IMG/VR virus record: IMGVR_UViG_3300009183_004565
Strand: one strand, 5' to 3'
DNA length: 64,000 nt
Source of the DNA: a virus
Lineage: Duplodnaviria > Caudoviricetes
Shown: positions 3,085 through 62,425 of the stretch, piece by piece
Position numbering within the stretch: the first letter of the stretch is position 1
Layout: each line of letters begins with the position of its first letter
Position numbers and translations under genes: made by a program
The notes under the pieces: model-generated
The model's input: only the letters and a program-made list of their open reading frames with translations
Told to the model about the DNA's origin: nothing
Databases searched by the model: none

Positions 3085-3135
3085 TAGGATGCTTCGGGTC
3101 CTATAAAACTTGCTTATTTTTAAGGAGAAACTATG
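3085..3135 (+). promoter_or_regulatory. ROSE-like RNA thermometer leader of dnaK
   Basis: 5' hairpin TAGGAT-GCTTCGG-GTCCTA, then CTTGCTTA-TTTT-TAAGGAG pairing the SD with a bulged G. Confidence 0.6.
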
Positions 3136-5019
3136 AGTACAATCATTGGTATCGATCTTGGTACCACCAATAGCTGCGTAGCAGTAATCGAAAACGGAAC
3201 CCCAAAAGTAATTGAAAATTCAGAAGGCGCACGTACTACACCTAGTATCGTTGCCTATACTGCTGAAGAGATTATTGTGGGAGCCGGTGCAAAACGTCAA
3301 GCAGTTACCAATCCAAAAAACACAATCTATGCGTCCAAGCGTTTAATAGGGCGTAAATTTACGGAACAGGCAGTTCAAAAAGATATTGATCTCATGCCTT
3401 ACAAGATCATCGAAAGCGCGAACGGCGATGCATGGGTGTCAGTCAACGACACGGAACTAGCACCTCCACAAATCAGTGCCGAAGTGCTTCGCAAAATGAA
3501 GAAGACCGCAGAAGACTATCTGGGTCATGAAGTAACACAGGCTGTAATTACTGTGCCTGCTTACTTCAATGACAGTCAACGACAGGCAACCAAAGATGCC
3601 GGAGCAATTGCTGGACTAGAAGTATTGCGTATTATCAATGAGCCAACTGCAGCAGCATTGGCATACGGAGTCGATAAAAATGAAAAAGCTGATCGCAAGA
3701 TCGCTGTGTACGATCTGGGTGGTGGTACCTTTGATGTTAGCATTATTGACATTGCTAATGTGGACGGTGATAAGCAATTTGAAGTCCTTTCCACCAATGG
3801 TGATACATTCCTAGGCGGTGAAGACTTTGACCAACGCATCATGGATTACTTGATCACTGAGTTTAAGAAAGAGTCAGGCGTTGATCTTGGTCGAGACGTT
3901 ATGGCACTGCAACGTCTAAAAGAAGCTGCAGAACGTACCAAGATTGAATTGAGTAACAGCACACAAACAGATGTGAACTTGCCTTACATCACAGCAGATG
4001 CTACAGGTCCCAAGCACATGAACATCAAGATGACTCGTGCTAAACTGGAAAGCCTAGTTGATGAATTGATTCAGCGCAGTATTGAACCTTGCCGTGTTGC
4101 AATGAAGGACGCAGGTGTCGTAGCCACGGACATCGATGAAGTTATCCTTGTTGGTGGTATGACACGTATGCCACGGGTTCAGGAAGAAGTTGAAAAGTTA
4201 TTTGGACGAGCACCACGTCGTGATGTCAATCCAGATGAAGCAGTAGCGGTTGGTGCAGCAGTACAAGGTGCTGTACTAGGTGGTAGCCGTAAAGACGTTC
4301 TATTACTTGATGTGACCCCACTAAGCCTAGGTATTGAAACCATGGGCGGCGTGATGACGAAACTAATCCAAAAGAATACCACTATTCCTACCAAGCATAG
4401 CCAGGTATTCTCTACAGCCGAAGACAACCAGCCGGCAGTAACTATCAAAGTCTATCAAGGCGAACGCGAACTTGTACAATATAATAAAACATTAGGTGAG
4501 TTTAATCTAGAAGGAATTCAACCTGCTCGACGTGGTGTACCGCAAGTAGAAGTCACGCTGGATGTTGACGCCAATGGTATTCTTAAAGTAAGTGCCAAAG
4601 ATAAAAGTACTGGCAAAGAAAACCGGATTACTATCAAGTCGGACAGTGGTCTAAGCCGAGAGCAGATTGAAGAAATGATTCGCGATGCCGAAGCTAATGC
4701 AGATGCAGACACAAAGCAACGTGAATTGATCGAAGTACGTAACCAAGCAGATGCAGTTGTCCACAAGATTCAAACTGATATGAAAGAAGCGGAAGGCAAG
4801 CTTTCGGAAGATCAGACGAAACAAATAGATGAGGCAATTGCCAACCTCAACAAGGCAATAGCAGAAACAGACAAAGAACTAATTACCACCAAGGTATCTG
4901 AGTTACTTGTTGCTGCGAATATTATTAATGAACTACAACAGCCGCAGACTACAGAAGAACAGCCCGAGCCTAAGGCCGATGACAATGTGGTTGACGCTGA
5001 ATTTAAAGAAACGAAGTAA
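3133..5019 (+). CDS. dnaK: Chaperone DnaK (Hsp70)
   Basis: [36 protein letters not shown] motifs; diderm-type insert; 628 aa. Confidence 0.98.
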
Positions 5020-8591: not shown

Positions 8592-9344
8592 ATGTTTAAA
8601 ACTATCTCAGCAATACTTATTCTCGCCACCAGTTGTACCTCCTCAGCAATTGAAATTCAAGCTAAGTCTTGGTTAATAGCCGATGGTGATGGGCATATAC
8701 TCGAACAACAGAGTATTGATGTTGTTCAACCTATTGCTTCTATAACTAAATTAATGACTGCAATGGTATATTTAGATAGCAATGAGAATTTAAAAGAAAA
8801 TGCCAAAACTAAGTTCAGAGGATTAACTGTTAGCAAACACAAACTATTAGAATTGGCAATTGTTCATTCTGACAATCAAGCAGCTGATATGTTGTGTAAA
8901 ATTTATCGTCGAGGATACAAAGCCTGTATTGATGATATGAATCATAAAGCACAGGTGTTAGGCATGTACAATACTGCTTTTTATGACAGCACCGGTCTGG
9001 ATAATCGCAATGTCAGTAATGCCATTGATTTGATTAAACTATTACAAGCAGCTGAACGATATCCCGAAATAGTTAATGCAAGTAACAAAACTATAGTTGA
9101 ACTTTTAAAAAGCAAAAAGAAAAAAACAATAAATCTAAAGTATACCAATACCAATCCTTTAGTGGCCAAATATAATGTAGTAGTTAGTAAAACCGGGTAT
9201 GTACAAGCCAGTGGCGGCTGCTTAGTGATGAGTGTATATATTGACGGTAAAAAAAGATTATTTGTAGTTTTGAATAGTAAAACTACAAGAACAAGAATTC
9301 GAGATATGGAAGTACTTATATTGTCAGAGCTATATAAAACATAA
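8592..9344 (+). CDS. D-alanyl-D-alanine carboxypeptidase/endopeptidase (peptidase S11, PBP5/7-like)
   Basis: Signal peptide; SxxK (ASITKL), SxN (SDN), KTG motifs. Confidence 0.9.
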   Translation: MFKTISAILILATSCTSSAIEIQAKSWLIADGDGHILEQQSIDVVQPIASITKLMTAMVYLDSNENLKENAKTKFRGLTVSKHKLLELAIVHSDNQAADMLCKIYRRGYKACIDDMNHKAQVLGMYNTAFYDSTGLDNRNVSNAIDLIKLLQAAERYPEIVNASNKTIVELLKSKKKKTINLKYTNTNPLVAKYNVVVSKTGYVQASGGCLVMSVYIDGKKRLFVVLNSKTTRTRIRDMEVLILSELYKT

Positions 9345-10616: not shown

Positions 10617-11843
10617 ATGAATGTAGGATTTATAGGATTAGGAAAATTAGGATTATCGTGTGCTGAAACAATGGCTACTCATTATTCAGTCACTGGATAT
10701 GATATTTACCCAAAACAAAGCGACTGTATTAAAATATCTGACAGCTTACGTGGAGCAGTTACTGGAAAAGATATTGTATTTGTTGCAGTACAAACACCGC
10801 ACGATCCTGCGTATGATGGCAGTCAACCAATTACTCATTTGCCCAACAAAGACTTTGATTATTCTATAGTCAAGGATGTACTAAAACAAATTGATGTATG
10901 GGCTGGTCCGGATCAGCTAATCGTTCTTATTAGCACTGTGTTACCAGGTACTGTACGTAGAGAGCTTAGAGACTGTATTACCGTTCCGCGTTTCATTTAC
11001 AATCCTTATCTTATTGCTATGGGAAGTGTAGAATGGGACATGGTTAATCCCGAAATGGTTATCATTGGTACAGAAGATGGCAGTGAAACAGGCGATGCAA
11101 AATTACTAGTAGATTTCTATCAACCGTTGATGCAAAACAATCCACGCTATGTCATAGGTACATGGGACGAAGCAGAAAGCATAAAAATATTTTATAACAC
11201 ATTTATCAGTACAAAGATTGCACTAGTGAATATGATACAAGACGTTGCTATGAAAAACGGCAACATCAATGTTGATGTGGTTACTGATGCACTGTCAGCA
11301 AGTACCACACGTATCATGAGCAGTAAGTACATGACTGCAGGCATGGGCGATGCAGGACCGTGTCATCCTAGAGATAACATTGCACTTCGTTGGCTAGCGG
11401 AAAACTTAAATCTAGGCTACGACATATTTGATACCATAATGAGTGCAAGGGAAGCACAAGCACTTAATCTAGCACGTTATTTAAAACGCATACAGCTAGA
11501 AAAAAACTTACCTATCTATGTATTAGGAAAAGCCTACAAACCTGATGTAGATATTCTTGATGGTAGTTATAGTTTATTACTAGGGCATTATTTAGAATCA
11601 ATTCAAGCAAAGTTTTATTATGTAGATCCGTTGACAGGAGATGCTCCACCGTTCGCCGGCATGCCTGTGATTGCCTTTATAGCACACAACAGAAAAATAA
11701 CTTATGGCTACACTGGAGAACAAACGGAACCGGAGTTATATGTAGACTTGGAGCCAGGCAGCGTGGTTGTTGATCCCTGGCGTCAGTATACAACAGAAAA
11801 AGATTACGAGGTTATACATTATGGCAACACACGACTCGTTTAA
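10617..11843 (+). CDS. UDP-glucose/GDP-mannose dehydrogenase family protein
   Basis: GFIGLGKLG Rossmann motif, ISTVLPGT, E.IK.FYN, GPCHPRD catalytic Cys. Confidence 0.9.
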   Translation: MNVGFIGLGKLGLSCAETMATHYSVTGYDIYPKQSDCIKISDSLRGAVTGKDIVFVAVQTPHDPAYDGSQPITHLPNKDFDYSIVKDVLKQIDVWAGPDQLIVLISTVLPGTVRRELRDCITVPRFIYNPYLIAMGSVEWDMVNPEMVIIGTEDGSETGDAKLLVDFYQPLMQNNPRYVIGTWDEAESIKIFYNTFISTKIALVNMIQDVAMKNGNINVDVVTDALSASTTRIMSSKYMTAGMGDAGPCHPRDNIALRWLAENLNLGYDIFDTIMSAREAQALNLARYLKRIQLEKNLPIYVLGKAYKPDVDILDGSYSLLLGHYLESIQAKFYYVDPLTGDAPPFAGMPVIAFIAHNRKITYGYTGEQTEPELYVDLEPGSVVVDPWRQYTTEKDYEVIHYGNTRLV

Positions 11844-17595: not shown

Positions 17596-17826
17596 ATGAC
17601 TAGTCCATATCACTTTCCTATTACTACAGTTCAAGATTCCTGGTCAACTACAAGTTATCCGGCCACAGCAGGAACAGGATTAAAACATACAACTATTACC
17701 GAAACCCACTATCCTGAGGGAAGTAGCACTAGACACGTAGAGACATATAGTGTTATAGTGTATGATGCTGCAGGAAGATTAAATGCTTACAACAATAGAT
17801 CCAACTATATTGACATATACGTATGA
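17596..17826 (+). CDS. Hypothetical protein
   Basis: 76-aa ORF coupled to uvsE by ATGA overlap. Confidence 0.5.
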   Translation: MTSPYHFPITTVQDSWSTTSYPATAGTGLKHTTITETHYPEGSSTRHVETYSVIVYDAAGRLNAYNNRSNYIDIYV

Positions 17827-18848
17827 TTAAACGAATTGGTTTTGCTTGCAAATGGTTAAATGATCCCTCCGAATGTGGGGGCATGAAAGTAAATGCTGTA
17901 GATCGTGACCTCAATGGCCGTAGCACTACTATGCGCTGGCTACGCGAACATCCTGCCGAAGCCGAACAGCGTCAGTGGGACATAATGAATCACAATGCCT
18001 CGGCTGCTGTAAAAATGATCGAGCGTGTGGCCACATTACCAGCTGAACGCAGAATGGTGCGGCTAGGCTCGGAAATGCTGCAAGGCTACACTGAAAAAGA
18101 CTGGCAGACATGGTGGCAGCAAGCAGATGTGCAACGCCATCTAGAACGGATATTTGCACCCATTGGTGAAACTGCACGACGTCTAGATGTACGCCTCAGC
18201 TTCCATCCCGGACAGTTTTGTGTGTTGGCCAGTGAAAATGACAACATAGTAAATAGATCTATAGAGGAGTTTGAATATCATGCAGATATGGCAAGATGGA
18301 TGGGCTACGGCACTTCGTTCCAGGACTTTAAAATCAATGTCCACATCTCGGGTAAACGCGGTCCGGCCGGTATCCGCAGTGCGCTCAGCCGACTCAGCCC
18401 TGAAGCAAGAAATTGCATCACAATCGAAAACGACGAAATGTCCTGGGGCATTGACGCCAGCCTTGAATTGGTCACGGACGTTGCTCTGGTGCTAGACCTA
18501 CACCACCACTGGATCAGAACCGGAGAATATATTGACCATAGAGATGATCGTATCAAGAGGATCCAGGATAGTTGGCGCGGTGTTCGTCCTGTTGTTCATT
18601 ACAGTACTAGTCGTGAGGATGTTGTGGTGGATCATGCATGCGATATCAAACCTGATCTAGATCGATTGTTAGCTGAAGGATACAAGAAACAAAAGCTCAG
18701 AGCACACAGTGACTTTGCATGGAATCGCGAAACAAATGCATGGGCACTAACACATTGGACATGGGCTGACATCATGGTTGAGGCCAAAGGCAAAAATCTT
18801 GCTAGTCAGCAATTGTACGAGCAACAACTGAATTTAACTGCTGACTAA
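17823..18848 (+). CDS. uvsE: UV DNA damage endonuclease UvsE/UvdE
   Basis: RIGFACK, RLSFHPGQF, IENDE, LDLHHHW, HSD and MVEAKGK motifs. Confidence 0.9.
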   Translation: MIKRIGFACKWLNDPSECGGMKVNAVDRDLNGRSTTMRWLREHPAEAEQRQWDIMNHNASAAVKMIERVATLPAERRMVRLGSEMLQGYTEKDWQTWWQQADVQRHLERIFAPIGETARRLDVRLSFHPGQFCVLASENDNIVNRSIEEFEYHADMARWMGYGTSFQDFKINVHISGKRGPAGIRSALSRLSPEARNCITIENDEMSWGIDASLELVTDVALVLDLHHHWIRTGEYIDHRDDRIKRIQDSWRGVRPVVHYSTSREDVVVDHACDIKPDLDRLLAEGYKKQKLRAHSDFAWNRETNAWALTHWTWADIMVEAKGKNLASQQLYEQQLNLTAD

Positions 18849-42717: not shown

Positions 42718-42752
42718 TTGTAACACGCTTGTAATACTAGTGTGCTTAAATA
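42718..42752 (+). promoter_or_regulatory. Pho-box-like tandem repeat plus TAAATA upstream of pstS
   Basis: TTGTAAC-ACGC-TTGTAAT (11-bp period), 11 nt gap, then TAAATA. Confidence 0.6.
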
Positions 42753-42786
42753 TTCACTGTAACGAAATATTTCAAAGGAGAAATTA

Positions 42787-43812
42787 ATGAAGAAGTTTGT
42801 GACATTAGCAGCACTAGTATTTTCTACAGTAGTATCAGCAGCTGATTTAACAGGCGCTGGTGCAACTTTTCCCTACCCAATTTATGCCAAATGGGCAGAA
42901 GCATATAAAGCAGCAACAGGTATAGGACTCAATTATCAATCCATCGGTTCAGGTGGTGGTATTCGTCAAATCAAAGCCAAGACAGTGGACTTTGGTGCCA
43001 GTGATATGCCATTGAAAGTAGAGGAATTAGACAAAGAAGGCTTAATGCAATTCCCCGCAATCATTGGTGGTGTTGTTCCGGTATTCAACCTTGATGGTGT
43101 ACAACCTGGTGAATTGAAACTGACCAGTGATGTAATCGCTAATATTCATCTAGGTAAAATTACCAAATGGAATGATCGAGCAATTGCTGAATTGAATCCT
43201 GGTGTCACACTACCAGCAATCAATATCACTGTTGTGCATCGTGCAGATGGCTCAGGCACAACATTCATTTGGACAAACTATCTGAGCAAAGTAAACGCCG
43301 ACTTTAAGAATACTGTAGGCGAAGGCTCTGCTGTGAAATGGCCAACTGGTGTAGGCGGCAAAGGTAACGAAGGTGTTGCGGCCAACGTTCAACGTGTCAA
43401 AGGCGCTTTTGGTTACGTGGAATATGCCTACGCCAAGAAAAACAAAATTGCGTATGCACAATTGAAAAATCGTGATGGTAACTTTGTACAACCAAGTGAT
43501 GATACATTTAAAGCAGCCGCAGCAGGTGCTGATTGGAACAATGCTCCAGGAATGTATTTGTTACTGACAAACCAAACTGGCAAAGATTCATGGCCAGCAA
43601 CTGGTGCCAGTTTTATCATAATGCACAAGCAACAAGCAGATGCTTTAACTGGTCGTGCTATTCTAAAATTCTTTGATTGGTCGTATAAAAACGGCGCCAA
43701 GATGAGTGAAGATTTGGAATATGTACACATGCCTCAGTCAGTTATCAAGTTAGTTCAAGATAACTGGAAAAAAGAACTCAAAGGACCAGACGGTCAATCA
43801 ATTTGGAAATAA
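42787..43812 (+). CDS. pstS: Phosphate ABC transporter substrate-binding protein PstS
   Basis: GAGATFPYP, YQSIGSGGGI, DFGASD, RADGSGTT, GGKGNEG. Confidence 0.97.
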   Translation: MKKFVTLAALVFSTVVSAADLTGAGATFPYPIYAKWAEAYKAATGIGLNYQSIGSGGGIRQIKAKTVDFGASDMPLKVEELDKEGLMQFPAIIGGVVPVFNLDGVQPGELKLTSDVIANIHLGKITKWNDRAIAELNPGVTLPAINITVVHRADGSGTTFIWTNYLSKVNADFKNTVGEGSAVKWPTGVGGKGNEGVAANVQRVKGAFGYVEYAYAKKNKIAYAQLKNRDGNFVQPSDDTFKAAAAGADWNNAPGMYLLLTNQTGKDSWPATGASFIIMHKQQADALTGRAILKFFDWSYKNGAKMSEDLEYVHMPQSVIKLVQDNWKKELKGPDGQSIWK

Positions 43813-43817
43813 ATCAT

Positions 43818-43856
43818 TTGACATACTCTAACACTTTTAATATAGTGTTAGAGTAT
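43818..43856 (+). promoter_or_regulatory. TTGACA-17-TATAGT promoter inside a 13-bp perfect inverted repeat
   Basis: ATACTCTAACACT (43823-35) / AGTGTTAGAGTAT (43844-56). Confidence 0.6.
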
Positions 43857-43875
43857 CAACATAAAGGAAAATGTA

Positions 43876-45291
43876 ATGAAACAATTTAAAATACTAACAG
43901 CGGCTCTGGCAATAGCTATGATGTTTGCTGGCGCAGCACAAGCAGATGAGTACACTGACACGTTAGATATTCTTTTACAAAAAGGAATTCTCACCAAGCA
44001 AGAACACGCTGCCAAAATTGAAGCACATAAAGATCGCTTGGAAAACAAAGAATTCCAATCATCTAGAATTGACAAAGATGTTAAAGACAACAACAACTAT
44101 CGTTTGAGCAAAGTGAATGATGGCGCTGTAATGGAAAATGGTCTTGGGATCAAATCAAAAGATGGCAATACCACAGCACAGTTTACTGGTCGTATTCATA
44201 TGGACTATAGAAGTTATACTCAAACATTTAGTTCTGGTCAAAGCACTGATCCATATCAAGACACACTAGAAGTTCGTCGTGGACGTTTTGGTGTACGTGG
44301 ACAGATTGCCAAAGACTTCAAATATCTGCTACTAGCAAACTTTGGTAACGATGCTGGCGCAAGTTCAACTACATCAACAATTGATGAGTTTTGGTTTAAC
44401 TATGCCGCTATCACAGAAGCACAACTACAAGTTGGTACATTCAAGATGCCTTTCAGTCTTGAACAGTTGACCAGTTCCAACAACATTGACTTTATGGAAC
44501 GTAGCCTGATTGGTCAGACCGAAGGCGAATTTATTCCTGCCAAAGAAACTGGTGTGATGCTGCATGGTATTCCTAGAACAGGATTCACCTATGCGTTGGC
44601 ACTAAGTCGTGGTCGTGCTAACAAGAGTACTACAGTTGATGGTGTAGATGTTATTGGTCGTGTGACTACAAACGTTGCAGAAGTAATTCAGAACAAAGAC
44701 TTTGTAGCACACTTAGGTGCAGCATACAGCACAGGCAATGTCAAAACAGGTGTTGCTCCCGCTAGTGGTCGTACTGAAGGACGTCAACAAAGTGCATGGT
44801 TCACAGGTTCATCTGCAATGAGTGGTGATACTGCACGAACACGCCAGGGCATTGAAGCAGCATTTGCCTGGAAGGGTTTGAAAGTACAGGGTGAGCAATT
44901 CGTCTTTAACTACGATCCTGCTACAGGAACAGACAAAGAGATCAAGGGTCACTATGTTCAAGCAATTTATAACATCACAGGTGAGAGTCACAACTACAAA
45001 GATGGCGTATTTGGTTGGATCAAACCTAACTCTGCTTTCACAAGTGGTGGCAGAGGCGCATGGCAAGTTGGCGTAAGAGCCAGTGAGTTTAATGCCGAAG
45101 ATATTACAGTTGCAACTGGTAAAGCAAATCTAGCAACGTCATTGACTTACGGTATTACTTGGTTTCTGAATGACAATGTACGCATAATGGCAAACTATGT
45201 TGACACCAAATTCAACAAACCAGTTGGTACATCTGGTGCCCGTGTAGATGGTGAACAGGCAGTTATGCTCAGAGGTCAGATCAGTTTCTAA
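43876..45291 (+). CDS. Phosphate-selective porin OprO/OprP family
   Basis: Signal peptide, LLQKGILT periplasmic motif, RRGRFG, GTFKMPFSLEQLTS, FMERS, C-terminal RGQISF. Confidence 0.88.
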   Translation: MKQFKILTAALAIAMMFAGAAQADEYTDTLDILLQKGILTKQEHAAKIEAHKDRLENKEFQSSRIDKDVKDNNNYRLSKVNDGAVMENGLGIKSKDGNTTAQFTGRIHMDYRSYTQTFSSGQSTDPYQDTLEVRRGRFGVRGQIAKDFKYLLLANFGNDAGASSTTSTIDEFWFNYAAITEAQLQVGTFKMPFSLEQLTSSNNIDFMERSLIGQTEGEFIPAKETGVMLHGIPRTGFTYALALSRGRANKSTTVDGVDVIGRVTTNVAEVIQNKDFVAHLGAAYSTGNVKTGVAPASGRTEGRQQSAWFTGSSAMSGDTARTRQGIEAAFAWKGLKVQGEQFVFNYDPATGTDKEIKGHYVQAIYNITGESHNYKDGVFGWIKPNSAFTSGGRGAWQVGVRASEFNAEDITVATGKANLATSLTYGITWFLNDNVRIMANYVDTKFNKPVGTSGARVDGEQAVMLRGQISF

Positions 45292-45310
45292 TTTCAAAAT
45301 TAGAACAAAT

Positions 45311-45334
45311 AAAAGGCACTTAGGTGCCTTTTTT
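45311..45334 (+). terminator. Intrinsic terminator
   Basis: AAAAGGCAC-TTAG-GTGCCTTTT. Confidence 0.75.
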
Positions 45335-45340
45335 TACGAC

Positions 45341-45376
45341 TTTGTAATGGATTTGTAATCTTGCAAACCTTAAATA
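45341..45376 (+). promoter_or_regulatory. Pho-box-like tandem repeat plus TAAATA upstream of plcP-like gene
   Basis: TTGTAAT-GGAT-TTGTAAT (11-bp period), 12 nt gap, then TAAATA. Confidence 0.6.
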
Positions 45377-45381
45377 ATTAT

Positions 45382-46227
45382 ATGAGCAAGACCTATCGTA
45401 GTATTTTTATCAGTGATATACACCTTGGTACTAAAGACTGTAAGGCTGTTGAGCTAAACAATTTTTTAAAAAATAATACCTGTAACACGTTATATCTTGT
45501 TGGTGATATTATAGATGCATGGAAAATAAAACAGAACAAGTGGCGTTGGAAACAAAGTCATACAAATGTTATACGCCGCATACTGGGTCATGCCAAAAGA
45601 GATACTCGTATTATATATGTACTAGGTAATCACGATGAGTTTTTAAGACCGTTCCTGCAATACAATTTAAATTTTGGAATGGTAGAGTTACATAACCAAT
45701 ACGAGCATATAGGTGCCGACGGTAAACATTATCTAGTCACACACGGTGACCTGTTTGATGGTATTACTAGACTGGCACCTTGGCTTAGTATATTAGGAGA
45801 CAAAGCATATGATTTCATACTTACTCTCAATTCTAGATTCAATTGGCTCCGTCATAGACTTGGCTTTGGTTATTGGAGTCTTAGCCTTTATCTTAAACAA
45901 CGGGTTAAACGAGCTTTAGACTTTATATTCCAGTTTGAAAGAAATCTAGCCGCATACTGTAAAAAGCGTGGATTTGATGGTGTCATATGCGGACACATAC
46001 ATCACGCAGAAATCAAAGAAATAGATGGTGTAGTATACATGAACGACGGTGACTGGGTTGAGTCAATGACAGCATTAGTAGAACATCATAACGGTCGTTG
46101 GGAAATCATAACTTGGACGCAGGAGAAGGATGATGTGGTTGATGATATTGATGGCAGTACACATAAACGATCCACGGGACGTTCCAGCAAAAATGACCTT
46201 GGAGTTCCCGGATCAACAGACGTGTGA
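45382..46227 (+). CDS. Metallophosphoesterase, LpxH/PlcP (phospholipase C)-like
   Basis: SDIHLG, GDIID, GNHD, HGD, CGHIH, NDGDW. Confidence 0.85.
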   Translation: MSKTYRSIFISDIHLGTKDCKAVELNNFLKNNTCNTLYLVGDIIDAWKIKQNKWRWKQSHTNVIRRILGHAKRDTRIIYVLGNHDEFLRPFLQYNLNFGMVELHNQYEHIGADGKHYLVTHGDLFDGITRLAPWLSILGDKAYDFILTLNSRFNWLRHRLGFGYWSLSLYLKQRVKRALDFIFQFERNLAAYCKKRGFDGVICGHIHHAEIKEIDGVVYMNDGDWVESMTALVEHHNGRWEIITWTQEKDDVVDDIDGSTHKRSTGRSSKNDLGVPGSTDV

Positions 46228-46287
46228 ACAAAGTGCAAAGTCGATGACGTATTGGGTAAAATTTGAATCATTCAAGATTGATGTAAA

Positions 46288-47301
46288 ATGCGTAAAAAAA
46301 TATTAGTAATAACAGATAACACACCGGATCAGATTAATGGCGTGGTTACAACTTTTAAGAACCTTGAGACCATGGCTGTTCTGGACGGTTATAGTATTGT
46401 ATACCTTACTCCCCGGGAGTTCGTACATTTTGATTGCCCAGGCTACCCTGAAGTTAAATTTGCCTGGCCGTGGGGTCTGGGTAAAAAGATTAAGGAGATA
46501 TCTCCGGATTATATACACATCGCCACAGAAGGTCCTCTTGGTTTGTGTGCTAGACTTTATCTTGACCTCCGGGGCTATAGGTATAATACTAGTTACCATA
46601 CTAAGTTCCCTGAATTTCTAAAAAAGATATACAATGTTCCAGAATGTATTACCTGGGGTTACCTACGTTGGTTCCATAAACACTCAGGCATAGTGTTAAC
46701 TAACACTAATACCATGGTCAATGAATTACGCAGACATGGATTCGAAGGTGGAATCATTCCATGGACTCGCGGAGTCAATAGAGAAGAATTGCAGCCCACA
46801 CAAGCATGGCCTCATCCTAATCCAAGGCCCTTGATATTATACGTGGGCCGTGTTAGTCAAGAAAAAGACATTGATGTAGTATGTCGACTAATTGATACAT
46901 ATGACGTGGTTGTTGTTGGTGACGGACCTGACAGAAAAAGGCTAGAGCAAGAACATCCAGGGTGTCAATTTGTGGGATATAAAACTGGAAAAGAATTAGC
47001 AGACTGGTATGCAAGAGCAGATGTACTGGCTTTTCCTAGTAGAGTTGATACATTTGGTATAGTAATGATTGAAGCAATGAGTCTAGGTACTCCAGTAGCA
47101 GCATACCTAGTACCTGGACCGCAAGATATTATTCGTCAAGGTGTTTCGGGATACATGAGCGAACGATTAAGAGACGCCGTGGACTTATGCTTACATATTC
47201 CTAGAGCCAGAGTTGTAGCAGACAGTGAGCGTTGGACGTGGGAATTATGTTGGGTTATATTTCGTAACAATCTAGTAGATTTAAATCGGGTGCAACAATA
47301 G
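46288..47301 (+). CDS. GT4 glycosyltransferase, Agt-like glycolipid synthase
   Basis: QINGVVTT, HIATEGPLG, SYHTKFPE, DTFGIVMIEAMSLGTPV. Confidence 0.85.
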   Translation: MRKKILVITDNTPDQINGVVTTFKNLETMAVLDGYSIVYLTPREFVHFDCPGYPEVKFAWPWGLGKKIKEISPDYIHIATEGPLGLCARLYLDLRGYRYNTSYHTKFPEFLKKIYNVPECITWGYLRWFHKHSGIVLTNTNTMVNELRRHGFEGGIIPWTRGVNREELQPTQAWPHPNPRPLILYVGRVSQEKDIDVVCRLIDTYDVVVVGDGPDRKRLEQEHPGCQFVGYKTGKELADWYARADVLAFPSRVDTFGIVMIEAMSLGTPVAAYLVPGPQDIIRQGVSGYMSERLRDAVDLCLHIPRARVVADSERWTWELCWVIFRNNLVDLNRVQQ

Positions 47302-47397
47302 AGCACCGCTGGAACTCGTAACCAGATTTCCCATTGGGGATTTTCATGTATAAATATTAGTATCAAAGGTAAAGAGCGCCTGCCCTTTTATTCAATT

Positions 47398-47649
47398 ATG
47401 TGGGAATGTTTAGTAACATTTTTTTCTATATTTTTTCTCGACATTGTATACACCTACTATCTTAGATGTGTAGCAAATGACAATGTATTAGGTGCGAGTT
47501 TTTGGAGTGTGGCCTGCTACATATTAGGAAGTGTTGCAGTTATTAGCTACACAACAAATCACTGGTTAGTTGTTCCTGCAATTGCTGGCGCATTTTGCGG
47601 AACTTATGTTGGAATGAAGATTAAAAAGCGCCAATCAAAAGACGAGTAA
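47398..47649 (+). CDS. Small multi-pass membrane protein
   Basis: Three hydrophobic helices; TATAAATA at 47349. Confidence 0.6.
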   Translation: MWECLVTFFSIFFLDIVYTYYLRCVANDNVLGASFWSVACYILGSVAVISYTTNHWLVVPAIAGAFCGTYVGMKIKKRQSKDE

Positions 47650-47656
47650 ACACCCC

Positions 47657-48301
47657 ATGAAACCTACCATTGCTATGTTCCTGTACCAGCCCCGAGCGTC
47701 TGTGCAATGTGGAAATGCAATGATGGAGGTTCTTTCTGATTACTACAAATTCAAAATTTTTACCAAGCAGGATATGGAAAAAGATTTCTTTGATGGAGTA
47801 GATATCGTGGCTTTTCCTGGCGGCGATGGGGATAGTGAAAGCTATCATTTTTTAATGAAGCATCACGAAAAACGTATACAAAACTTCGTACAAGACGGTG
47901 GTCGTTATTTAGGTATTTGTATGGGTGCTTATTGGGCCGGAAGCCATTACTTTGATATGCTAGACGGTGTAGATGCTGTACAGTATATTACACAACCCAA
48001 TACAGACACTCGCCGACCTCATGCCAAAGCCTGTCCTGTCAATTGGGACGGAGAAGATATGCGAATGTATTTTTACGATGGCTGTGCTTTAGCAGGTGAC
48101 GAGAGCAAGTTTGACACCATTGCTCGCTATGCAAACGGTGACCCAATGGCCATATTTCAAGACCGTATTGGAATCATGGGCTGTCACCCCGAAAGTGAAC
48201 AATGGTGGTATGAAATACATAACTATCTAAAACCGCATTATCATAACGGATATCATCATCAATTGTTGCTCGAATTTGTTGACCAATTAATGCAACAGTA
48301 G
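47657..48301 (+). CDS. Class I glutamine amidotransferase-like (BPL_N-type) protein
   Basis: FPGGDG, YLGICMGAY, GCHPE (Cys-His-Glu). Confidence 0.8.
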   Translation: MKPTIAMFLYQPRASVQCGNAMMEVLSDYYKFKIFTKQDMEKDFFDGVDIVAFPGGDGDSESYHFLMKHHEKRIQNFVQDGGRYLGICMGAYWAGSHYFDMLDGVDAVQYITQPNTDTRRPHAKACPVNWDGEDMRMYFYDGCALAGDESKFDTIARYANGDPMAIFQDRIGIMGCHPESEQWWYEIHNYLKPHYHNGYHHQLLLEFVDQLMQQ

Positions 48302-48329: not shown

Positions 48330-48767
48330 ATGAGTAATCTCAAAGGTAGCAAAACAGCTGAATGTCTCAAAGAAGCATTTGCCGGAGAATCAATGGCAAA
48401 TCGTCGTTACTTGTATTTTGCAAACGGTTGCGATATTGCAGGTGAAAATGATCTAGCAGCATTGTTCCGTTCAACCGCCGAAGGTGAAACAGGACATGCA
48501 CATGGTCATATGGAGTATTTGATTGAAGGTGGTGCAGGCGAACCCGGTACAGGCTTACCAGGTAAGACACCACTTGAAATGTTACAAGCAGCAATTCATG
48601 GCGAAACACACGAGTACACAGACATGTATCCGGGTATGGCACGTACTGCCCGTGACGAAGGATTTGATGAAGTTGCTGATTGGTTTGAAACATTGGCCAA
48701 AGCAGAACGCAGTCACGCCAATCGTTATCAAAAAGCACTAGAGAAGTACACTGCTGATAATGCCTAA
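48330..48767 (+). CDS. Rubrerythrin/erythrin (di-iron domain only)
   Basis: [33 protein letters not shown]. Confidence 0.92.
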
Positions 48768-49362: not shown

Positions 49363-50607
49363 ATGCGTTTAATTCCATCATTAGTAGTGGCACTCGCTGC
49401 GGCCTGTGTTACCTCTGTTGCATTGGCCGATAGACCTTTGCAACCAATCGTAGAAGTATCAAAGAAAGGTACAAAGTGTAAGCAAGATCCCAACTGTTTT
49501 AATCGGTTGAGTCCTGCTATCAAGCCTGTTGCCAAGGCCAAACCAGGCGAGTTAATTAGAGTCCAAACAAGGGATGCGGTGGATGCCGAACTAGACATCA
49601 ATGCAAAACCCAAAGATGTTACCGCAATTGACCTAAGTTTAGTACACCCAATGACTGGTCCAATTTATATCGAAGGCGCAAAGCGCGGTGATGTATTGGC
49701 AGTTAAGATTGTAGACGTTGAGCCAGAAAAACACGGCTGGACCACAATCATTCCAGGATTCAACTTCCTGAGTGACATGTTCCCAGAGCCGTACATTGCC
49801 AACTGGCGTTTGAATCGCCTTGAGGCAGTGAGCGAGCAAATTCCTGGTGTACGTATTCCTATGCGAGCATTTACAGGTATCATTGGTGTTATGCCTGGTG
49901 AACCAGAAATTGATAAATGGTTGGCTCGTGAAACTCAATTGGCAGATGCCGGCGGCGCAGCATTAAAACCATTACCAAGTGGAGCTCACCCTGCTAACAT
50001 TTGCGGACCTAACGGTTCACACAAAGACAAGTGCTTGAGATCTGTACCACCACGTGAAAACGGCGGTAACATGGATGTCAAACAGATGGTTGTCGGAACT
50101 ACTTTACTCTTTCCATGTTTTGTAGATGGATGCGGACTGTACATCGGTGACGTACACTATGCACAAGGCGATGGCGAAGTAGCAGGTACTGCAATCGAAA
50201 TGAATGGTGTTGTTACTGTTGAAACCAGTATTCGTAAGGGTGGTGCTGCTACACTTAAATCGATTCAATTCGAAGGCGGTTCGCAGTTGAAGGCATTGGA
50301 ACCAGATGCTTTCCATGCTACCATTGGATTCCCACTTAAGAATGCCGGCGAAATCCCACCACACTTGACTTACTTAGACAGCAAGAAAATTGGTCCTCTT
50401 ACCAATCTGTCACAAGACTTGACTCAAGCAGCACGTAGCAGTTTGATTCAAATGATTGATTGGCTACAACAAACCAAAGGTCTAACCAAAGAACAGGCCT
50501 ATGTTGTAACCAGCGTTGCTTGCGATCTGCGTATCAGCAATGTAGTTGACGTACCAAACTATGCTGTGACCACGATCTGCCCGTTGGAAATTTTTGAATC
50601 CAAGTAA
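49363..50607 (+). CDS. Acetamidase/formamidase family protein with signal peptide
   Basis: HPMTGPIYIEGA..GDVLAV, ENGGNMD, GDVHYAQGDGEV.GTAIE; N-terminal hydrophobic signal ending VALA. Confidence 0.9.
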   Translation: MRLIPSLVVALAAACVTSVALADRPLQPIVEVSKKGTKCKQDPNCFNRLSPAIKPVAKAKPGELIRVQTRDAVDAELDINAKPKDVTAIDLSLVHPMTGPIYIEGAKRGDVLAVKIVDVEPEKHGWTTIIPGFNFLSDMFPEPYIANWRLNRLEAVSEQIPGVRIPMRAFTGIIGVMPGEPEIDKWLARETQLADAGGAALKPLPSGAHPANICGPNGSHKDKCLRSVPPRENGGNMDVKQMVVGTTLLFPCFVDGCGLYIGDVHYAQGDGEVAGTAIEMNGVVTVETSIRKGGAATLKSIQFEGGSQLKALEPDAFHATIGFPLKNAGEIPPHLTYLDSKKIGPLTNLSQDLTQAARSSLIQMIDWLQQTKGLTKEQAYVVTSVACDLRISNVVDVPNYAVTTICPLEIFESK

Positions 50608-61585: not shown

Positions 61586-62425
61586 ATGAAAATCGCAGTA
61601 TGCAGCGATCTCCATTTAGAGTTTGGAGATTTGGACTTAGAGAACACCAAGAACGCCGACGTGCTGATTCTTGGTGGTGACATCTTCATTGCCGAAGATT
61701 TAAATCACTTTGAGCCCAACTTGATCAATAATGATGTGTTGATTCCGACTCGCATGGCTCTACGTGCCCAGCGTTCATATGACTTTGTTCAACGCTGTTG
61801 CGAACGGTTTCCGCATGTTGTATTAATCGCAGGTAACCACGAACACTATCACGGTGATTTTGCTGAGACTCATTGGACGTTGCGTAAGGTGTTTGCAGAC
61901 TTTACTAATCTACACATCTTGGACAAACAGTTTACTATAATTGACAATGTTGTATTCTTTGGTGGCACACTATGGACCAACATGAACAGCGAAGATCCTG
62001 AAACCATGCGGACTGTTCGTGGCATAATGAATGACTACAACTGTATCAAGAATACATCAGAAGAAGGTATGAAAGTATTCATGCCCGAAGATTCTGTTAC
62101 GGATCATAAAAAGTTCTTGGCCGAACTTGATCGGGTGTTGCGTGTTTATCCCACACAACCTACAGTGGTAGTCGGGCATCATGCACCTAGCAAAGCAAGC
62201 ACTCATCCTCGTTATAAAACTGAAACAATAATGAATGGTGCATATAGCAGCAACTTGGACAATTTTATTCTTGACAATCGTCAGATCAAACTTTGGACAC
62301 ATGGACACACACACGAAGATTTTGATTACATGATCGGATCTACTCGTATTGTTTGCAACCCACGTGGCTATGATGGGTACGAGGCCAAGGCTGATACATT
62401 TACTCTTAAATACGTGGAGATCTAA
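61586..62425 (+). CDS. Metallophosphoesterase
   Basis: SDLHLE, GGD, AGNHEH, GHHAP, HGHTH, CNPRGY. Confidence 0.9.
   Translation: MKIAVCSDLHLEFGDLDLENTKNADVLILGGDIFIAEDLNHFEPNLINNDVLIPTRMALRAQRSYDFVQRCCERFPHVVLIAGNHEHYHGDFAETHWTLRKVFADFTNLHILDKQFTIIDNVVFFGGTLWTNMNSEDPETMRTVRGIMNDYNCIKNTSEEGMKVFMPEDSVTDHKKFLAELDRVLRVYPTQPTVVVGHHAPSKASTHPRYKTETIMNGAYSSNLDNFILDNRQIKLWTHGHTHEDFDYMIGSTRIVCNPRGYDGYEAKADTFTLKYVEI

Follow-up and report, generated by a model that had tools for sequence, protein, structure and literature searches.

The 64,000-nucleotide stretch of viral DNA analyzed here (IMG/VR record IMGVR_UViG_3300009183_004565), which we call the window, carries four intact open reading frames (ORFs) on the plus strand between positions 42787 and 47301. 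They encode, in order, the phosphate-binding protein PstS, an outer-membrane porin of the phosphate-selective OprO/OprP family, a PlcP-family metallophosphoesterase predicted to be a phospholipase C, and an Agt/GTcp-type glycosyltransferase of family 4 (GT4). The original prediction for this region, made from the letters of the window, was of four adjacent phage genes that form a single phosphorus-scavenging module. The adjacency was confirmed. The ORFs lie on the same strand at 42787 to 47301, each matches its family, and all four are under purifying selection, with median ratios of nonsynonymous to synonymous substitution rates (dN/dS) against phage relatives of 0.10 for PstS, 0.10 for the porin, 0.08 for PlcP, and 0.19 for GT4. 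Measured against the closest relative, L001, the ratios for the four genes fall between 0.07 and 0.12.

The first two genes have clear assignments. PstS (42787-43812, plus strand) scores 443 bits against NF008171 (cut-off, 339 bits) and 395 bits against TIGR00975 (cut-off, 205 bits), belongs to phrog_5385, and matches E. coli-type PstS structures in the Protein Data Bank (PDB) at about 400 bits. Its translation shows a Sec signal peptide ending VSA/A, and a Shine-Dalgarno sequence, AAGGAG, precedes the gene at 42775-42780 on the plus strand. The porin (43876-45291, plus strand) matches Pfam Porin_O_P (PF07396) at 141.7 bits, against a cut-off of 20.9 bits, and has a signal peptide ending AQA/D. 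Its residues 87 to 460 align with the structures of OprO (4rjx) and OprP (2o4v) across the whole barrel (E value of 8e-15). Channels of this family owe their phosphate selectivity to an arginine ladder and a lysine cluster; in a mapping of part of the channel residues, the GR..DY and RR segments align with OprO. Where viral loci carry the porin, it lies directly 3' of pstS in 14 of 17 cases; two of the remaining three loci are cut at the porin 5' end, and the third (L206) shows no PstS upstream.

The metallophosphoesterase gene (45382-46227, plus strand; Pfam Metallophos, 44.6 bits) has an alternative TTG start at 45361, but the ATG at 45382 is the likelier one because relatives are 276 to 281 amino acids long. 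A residue check that covered the general metal motifs DxH, GD, GNHD, H, and GHxH found D12, H14, G41-D42, G82-N83-H84-D85, H121, and G204-H205-x-H207 to be invariant in 30 family members, including the window protein. The original prediction had set PlcP against LpxH for this LpxH-like enzyme, and the grouping was checked; the protein did not group as LpxH. It scores 42.3 bits against the LpxH equivalog model NF003743 (cut-off, 134 bits) and 31 bits against TIGR01854 (cut-off, 190.35 bits). All five tested bacterial genomes that carry a PlcP homolog hold a separate LpxH, which scores 179 to 336 bits on TIGR01854, and the PlcP homolog registered on an LpxH model in one of the five, at 41 bits. 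A maximum-likelihood tree built from 102 sequences sets LpxH apart on a branch of 4.29 substitutions per site (100% support), and the window PlcP falls among 14 phage sequences whose clade is fully supported and sister to a bacterial clade. Published PlcP trees take LpxH as the outgroup (PMC9239053).

Structure comparison gave the same partner at a distance. A PDB sequence search with the window metallophosphoesterase returned only LpxH, with an E value of approximately 0.003. Its AlphaFold model (predicted local distance difference test [pLDDT] score of 82.7) consists of a metallophosphoesterase core with a two-helix insert, and the 25 best fold matches in the PDB are all LpxH, at only 17 to 22% identity. 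LpxH is the nearest solved fold, and not the family, of this enzyme. When each species was represented by a single genome, a scan yielded 595 PlcP relatives, the best 80 of which come from alpha-, beta-, and gammaproteobacteria, with 47 to 58% identity; Pseudomonas species are among the proteobacterial relatives. In about 50 of these 80 bacterial loci, the gene immediately 3' of the PlcP homolog has the same orientation and encodes a GT4 with 36 to 42% identity to the window GT4. A downstream agt gene defines the type 2 plcP neighborhood, the commonest described for marine bacteria, and other types contain different glycosyltransferases (PMC4796936). The "LpxH-like" enzyme therefore appears to belong to the PlcP family, which is commonly mislabeled as LpxH, and phospholipase C activity is predicted for it.

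The GT4 gene (46288-47301, plus strand) matches Glycos_transf_1 at 80.8 bits and Glyco_transf_4 at 49.7 bits. The SAR11 enzyme GTcp contains a His104-Asp256 dyad, with Asp in place of the usual GT4 Glu, together with the motifs GRVAxEKN and FPSxTDTFG, and mutagenesis showed that it also needs Gly16, Gly82, Gly85, Arg190, Lys195, and Glu264 (PMC8231724). The window GT4 has H104 and D254, GRVSQEKD at residues 187 to 194, FPSRVDTFG at residues 249 to 257, and, as further residues, G18, G82, G85, R188, K193, and E262. All catalytic and binding residues mapped in SAR11 GTcp are thereby retained, including Asp for Glu. These signature residues uphold the Agt-like assignment made in the original prediction. 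They point to membership in the Agt/GTcp group, with predicted synthesis of a glycosyl-diacylglycerol from a UDP (uridine diphosphate)-sugar and diacylglycerol (DAG).

At least 478 viral contigs in IMG/VR encode a PlcP relative, and the neighbors of plcP were counted in the best 80 of these. A glycosyltransferase directly follows the PlcP gene in 74 of the 80 loci, being a GT4 in 31 and a family 2 enzyme (GT2) in 43. The GT2 that stands in for GT4 in these 43 loci is a protein of 236 amino acids (for example, L002:10921-11631); it is very abundant in metagenomes, where its homologs bear generic names only. Its fold is unrelated to that of GT4, and its score just passes the Pfam threshold for GT21, to which the processive glycolipid synthase Pgt belongs. 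The glycosyltransferase partner of PlcP is interchangeable, GT4 or GT2, and the alternation of two unrelated glycosyltransferases behind a conserved PlcP is strong evidence that both steps are coupled.

Of the 80 viral loci, 17 have PstS and 7 have the porin no more than 6 kb away from PlcP. In one complete relative, a distance of about 170 kb separates pstS from plcP, and a search for the porin gave none. The single four-gene module that had been proposed for the region thus gives way to two cassettes with separate promoters, pstS-oprP and plcP-glycosyltransferase, which adjoin in this lineage in either order. Since these genes are also found side by side in viral contigs related to the window, their adjacency is not due to chance. 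Within the window, the two cassettes are parted by an intrinsic terminator with a 9-bp G+C-rich stem and a T run (45311-45338, plus strand; -12.3 kcal/mol, z = -3.9), which ends the pstS-porin unit.

The two cassettes share a distinctive promoter element. Upstream of pstS (42718-42752, plus strand), it reads TTGTAAC-N4-TTGTAAT (42718-42735) followed by an 11-nt spacer and the -10-like TAAATA (42747-42752); upstream of plcP (45342-45376, plus strand), it reads TTGTAAT-N4-TTGTAAT (45342-45359), again with an 11-nt spacer before TAAATA (45371-45376). These are the only two exact matches to TTGTAAY-N4-TTGTAAT, 11 nt, TAAATA in the 64-kb window. The end of the plcP TAAATA is 5 nt from the ATG, an offset that is conserved, and this suggests an mRNA with little or no leader. 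Among viral loci, 17 of 30 keep the motif 5' of pstS and 33 of 89 have it 5' of the PlcP gene, where its offset is constant at about -36 to -39. Viral loci totaling 1.06 Mb contain 57 plus-strand copies of TGTAA-N6-TGTAA. Of these, 50 precede pstS or plcP by no more than 130 nt, and none precedes a glycosyltransferase or porin gene. The element stays with pstS and plcP even where gene order differs, and among the viral TGTAA repeats, the spacers vary and the half-sites are fixed. A Pho box has two CTGTCAT-like half-sites, 11 bp apart, in place of a -35 element. We refer to the element as Pho-box-like because it combines a PhoB-type architecture with half-sites that deviate from TGTCA. A strict scan for canonical Pho boxes upstream of bacterial plcP matched at only 2 of 80 loci and is therefore uninformative on regulation there.

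Bacterial PlcP, a Mn2+-dependent enzyme, cleaves phosphatidylethanolamine, phosphatidylglycerol, or phosphatidylcholine to DAG and a phospho-headgroup, and Agt combines DAG with a UDP-sugar to form monoglucosyl-DAG or glucuronic acid-DAG (PMC4796936, PMC8231724). In the phage, the shared promoter, with two TGTAA half-sites phased 11 bp apart at -35, would probably make the cassettes respond to host PhoB and hence fire only in phosphate-starved hosts. The pstS-oprP cassette would export two proteins, one that binds phosphate in the periplasm and one that forms an anion-selective porin in the outer membrane, and these would boost phosphate capture via the PstCAB transporter of the host. In the cytoplasm, PlcP would cut host phospholipid to DAG and phospho-headgroup, and the Agt/GTcp-type GT4 would glycosylate the DAG to mono-glucosyl or glucuronosyl DAG. 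Membrane phosphorus would enter the cell pool for phage DNA synthesis, and the bilayer would stay intact through the phosphorus-free glycolipid. Judged from these gene assignments, the phage probably draws phosphorus from the host membrane. We estimate a probability of roughly 60% that the locus consists of two Pho-regulon-type cassettes that provide phosphate uptake and a phospholipid-to-glycolipid swap in phosphate-starved hosts, a reading in which we infer the enzyme activities, the PhoB control, and the benefit to the phage.

Several observations count against this reading. The activities of the phage PlcP and glycosyltransferase copies are read from sequence, and PlcP membership follows from identity to proteins of proteobacterial plcP-agt operons and not to characterized PlcP sequences such as MED193_17359, for which an E value below 1e-40 served as the criterion in published work (PMC4796936). 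The phage PlcP clade is nested in no bacterial class, and therefore no donor can be named. PlcP frees phospho-headgroups rather than orthophosphate, so a further step would be needed. As to regulation, the half-sites are TGTAA as opposed to the canonical TGTCA, which amounts to 4 to 5 mismatches over the 14 bases of CTGTCAT-N4-CTGTCAT (position 5 in both half-sites), and the sampled Burkholderiales pstS promoters mostly carry TGTCAT. We also take TAAATA to resemble a T4-type late promoter, in which case a phage factor could control the cassettes instead of PhoB.

The strongest alternative concerns this last point. The TGTAA repeats might be recognized by a regulator that the phage encodes, or form the upstream part of a late-type TAAATA phage promoter, so that expression follows the infection program. 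The deviation of both half-sites from TGTCA and the likeness of TAAATA to the T4 late-promoter core would fit such control, as would the presence before the next gene of TATAAATA without repeats at 47350-47357. However, the repeats are essentially limited to pstS and plcP, two classic Pho-regulon genes, and PhoB-activated promoters show the same 11-bp phasing and the same gap of 11 nt before the -10-like element. TGTAA half-sites are also found inside some bacterial pstS Pho boxes. We consider a phage-timed program unlikely, though it deserves to be taken seriously, and would give putative PhoB control of both cassettes, as opposed to control by a phage-encoded factor, roughly even to two-in-three odds.

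A different purpose is conceivable for the lipid genes themselves. The plcP-glycosyltransferase pair could serve envelope remodeling and not phosphorus supply, with altered membrane charge or composition acting as a block to superinfection, as resistance to attack by the host or by competitors, or in the timing of lysis. A review treats lipid renovation in P. aeruginosa in connection with phage infection (PMC9804370), PlcP and its glycosyltransferase occur without a nearby pstS or porin in most viral loci, and a phage-specific amidotransferase-like partner that is absent from bacterial operons (described below) hints at a modified role. Set against this, the distinctive promoter element is common only to the pair and to pstS, a dedicated phosphate-acquisition gene; the pair adjoins pstS-oprP in this lineage; and phoH is also carried by relatives. 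Envelope remodeling as the main purpose is therefore improbable in our view, and phosphorus supply remains the preferred interpretation of the pair.

It is far less probable still that the metallophosphoesterase is a divergent LpxH and the GT4 a lipopolysaccharide (LPS) or cell-wall glycosyltransferase, the pair acting on lipid A or LPS. Source annotations do label proteins of the window type as LpxH, and lpxH is listed under LPS biosynthesis in a Lake Baikal viral metatranscriptome. The window protein shares with LpxH the metallophosphoesterase fold with its helical insert, a di-metal site, and a substrate predicted to be a lipid, and LpxH is its best structural match and provides the closest solved folds. 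Unlike LpxH, however, it falls far below both equivalog cut-offs and is only 17 to 22% identical to the LpxH structures. Its bacterial relatives are LpxH paralogs that coexist with a true LpxH, the very long, fully supported branch divides the two groups, and the GT4 has the signature residues of a DAG glycosyltransferase.

The source of the window is concluded, from its gene content and relatives, to be a large T4-like freshwater phage, since relatives carry Gp23, terminase, and PhoH, strand use is near-uniform, and ORFans are many. Nearly all genes in the window share one strand, 8 tRNA genes are scattered among them, and most large ORFs have no family. DNA of this stretch occurs in freshwater and lake metagenomes; a search of GenBank phages found no DNA nearly identical to the window. 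The nearest relatives of the metallophosphoesterase (73 to 99% identity) are encoded on metagenomic contigs of 350 to 367 kb and on IMG/VR viral contigs. Three viral relatives rated 95 to 100% complete by CheckV encode the T4-type major capsid protein Gp23 (325 to 475 bits), and one of the three additionally carries the large terminase and PhoH, in agreement with the earlier attribution to a phage. Bacterial homologs exist for all four genes, and DnaK and other cellular-type genes lie inside the window, but a bacterial origin (a host island or a mis-binned contig) is scarcely credible. No cellular genome was found for the window, and the near-uniform strand use, the 8 scattered tRNA genes, and the many ORFans also speak against it. 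So do the closest relatives, which are IMG/VR contigs of 170 to 360 kb that carry Gp23 and terminase. In bacteria, identity reaches at most 58% for PlcP and 70% for PstS (the best match in 301 sampled Burkholderiales genomes), versus 73 to 99% among viral and metagenomic relatives.

The closest known counterparts of the locus are bacterial PlcP-Agt operons for lipid renovation, namely PlcP of S. meliloti and Phaeobacter MED193, PlcP with Agt/GTcp of SAR11 HTCC7211, PA3219-PA3218 of P. aeruginosa, and Methylosinus OB3b (PMC4796936, PMC8528852, PMC9239053, PMC8231724). The window pair resembles the bacterial operon in its gene order (plcP followed by GT4), its metallophosphoesterase motifs, its Agt dyad and UDP-sugar motifs, its distance from LpxH as an outgroup, and the phosphate-starvation-type promoter upstream. 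Like bacterial plcP, for which six neighborhood types are distinguished, phage plcP has a glycosyltransferase partner that varies. In contrast to the bacterial operon, the window pair is virus encoded, and the phage proteins form their own clade with no more than 58% identity to sampled bacteria. The window promoter has TGTAA and not TGTCA, the plcP mRNA is probably leaderless, and the phage pair is often joined by the amidotransferase-like gene.

In cyanophages, pstS and phoA are expressed as part of the phosphate-stress response of the host and are controlled by host PhoBR. Like the cyanophages with pstS, the window source is T4-like, encodes a host-type PstS that must dock on host PstCAB, and has a Pho-type promoter upstream. 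Unlike theirs, its host would be a heterotrophic Gram-negative bacterium, and its PstS is paired with a porin and has a lipid-remodeling pair alongside; to our knowledge, such a pair has not been reported in cyanophages. A preprint describes cyanophage PstS as integrating into the host uptake system (bioRxiv 10.1101/2021.07.20.453049).

A phage oprP gene is already on record. According to a 2026 preprint, oprP occurs in freshwater amoC-phages of 155 to 338 kb and about 36 to 39% G+C that infect Nitrosomonadaceae, where it is treated as a host-like marker, and a text search of the preprint turned up no mention of pstS, phospholipase, glycosyltransferase, or lipids (bioRxiv 10.64898/2026.06.18.733297). 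The window source is likewise a large freshwater phage with a gene of the phosphate-selective porin family. Unlike the amoC-phages, five viral relatives of the window that were searched lack AmoC, and we therefore see no link to that group. The original view that a linked lipid-remodeling pair with a porin is less well known in phages than pstS calls for correction in part: phage oprP has been described, and our literature search found no paper on phage PlcP or Agt, on PlcP together with phage auxiliary genes, or on pelagimyophages together with phospholipase.

PlcP-family genes are also present in cultured T4-like phages. Pelagibacter phage Mosig EXVC030M encodes a PlcP homolog with 50.6% identity that is annotated as LpxH (Mosig_00120; MT647606), and Synechococcus phage S-SRM01 has a PlcP-family gene, again annotated as LpxH, with 38% identity. 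Both phages resemble the window source in this respect and differ from it in having no glycosyltransferase or porin beside the PlcP gene. The Mosig gene is divergent from one annotated "putative phosphate ABC transporter"; a tblastn search with the window PstS had no hit in the Mosig locus, and a text search of the Mosig genome announcement turned up neither phosphate nor lipid. In the divergent intergenic region in Mosig (L087:5836-6000), TTAAC(A) is repeated several times, with an 11-bp spacing between two of the copies, and this may represent another kind of Pho box.

Most of a virion is DNA, and phosphorus is for this reason often limiting in phage production. The known phage phosphorus sources are uptake genes (pstS and phoA) and the recycling of host nucleotides. 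If our reading is true, phage PlcP-Agt would add to these the membrane of the host as a third source. Roughly a tenth to a fifth of the phosphorus in a cell is bound in phospholipids, an amount of a similar order to that in several copies of a 350-kb genome, and the gain could therefore matter for a large phage with a small burst. Viral "lpxH" entries in auxiliary-gene and metatranscriptome tables are probably plcP, and some environmental counts of plcP, which serve as markers of bacterial phosphate stress, may consequently be viral.

Two genes follow the plcP-GT4 pair in the window. The first (47398-47649, plus strand) encodes an 83-amino-acid protein without a family match that has homologs in 7 viral loci and follows the glycosyltransferase in several relatives. 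The TATAAATA element at 47350-47357, which precedes this ORF, resembles a T4 late promoter. It is possible that the 83-amino-acid protein is a member of the module. The second gene (47657-48301, plus strand) encodes a stand-alone, class I glutamine-amidotransferase-like enzyme of 214 amino acids (Pfam BPL_N, 46 bits). Its Cys88-His177-Glu179 triad is intact and invariant, and its structural model (pLDDT of 93) matches the folds of Pdx2 and HisH with template modeling scores of approximately 0.65 to 0.7; searches of NCBIfam and of PDB sequences gave no match. Of about 100 viral loci, 36 have the gene no more than 6 kb from plcP-glycosyltransferase, and 21 have it at a distance of 350 bp or less (further copies at L002:11977-12615 and L169:5352-5984); it is absent from all 80 bacterial plcP loci sampled. 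The module may thus have a third component that is specific to phages. More speculatively, and with rather less confidence than for the reading given above, phosphate starvation may trigger a lipid renovation by PlcP, GT4 or GT2, and the Cys-His-Glu amidotransferase-like enzyme that provides a significant phosphorus source for replicating genomes of 170 to 360 kb in phosphate-poor lakes. If true, this would also make large T4-like freshwater phages an unrecognized source of glycolipids and of plcP or "lpxH" signals in environmental surveys; we hold this extended scheme to be doubtful.

Other genes in the window were noted as well. A gene of the UDP-glucose/GDP (guanosine diphosphate)-mannose dehydrogenase family (10617-11843), about 33 kb upstream, could supply UDP-glucuronate for a glucuronosyl lipid; among about 100 viral loci, only 1 has a UDP-glucose dehydrogenase homolog no more than 6 kb from PlcP. 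The window also encodes another metallophosphoesterase (61586-62425), which is 279 amino acids long, unrelated to the first, and weakly similar to cAMP phosphodiesterase models; its homologs occur near plcP in 4 viral loci. The cellular-type genes elsewhere in the window encode DnaK (3133-5019), a D-Ala-D-Ala carboxypeptidase-like protein (8592-9344), the UV endonuclease UvdE (17823-18848), rubrerythrin (48330-48767), and a formamidase/acetamidase (49363-50607).

The spacer between pstS and the porin gene contains a 13-bp perfect hairpin (43823-43856, plus strand; -18.7 kcal/mol, z = -4.9). It overlaps a near-consensus sigma-70-like promoter, TTGACA-17-TATAGT (43818-43846, plus strand), which had 11 of 12 matches in a promoter scan. 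The hairpin is lineage specific, the corresponding spacer in the gene tables of relatives L002 and L004 being only 9 to 10 nt long. The inverted repeat with its promoter (43818-43856) could act as an operator or as an RNA hairpin.

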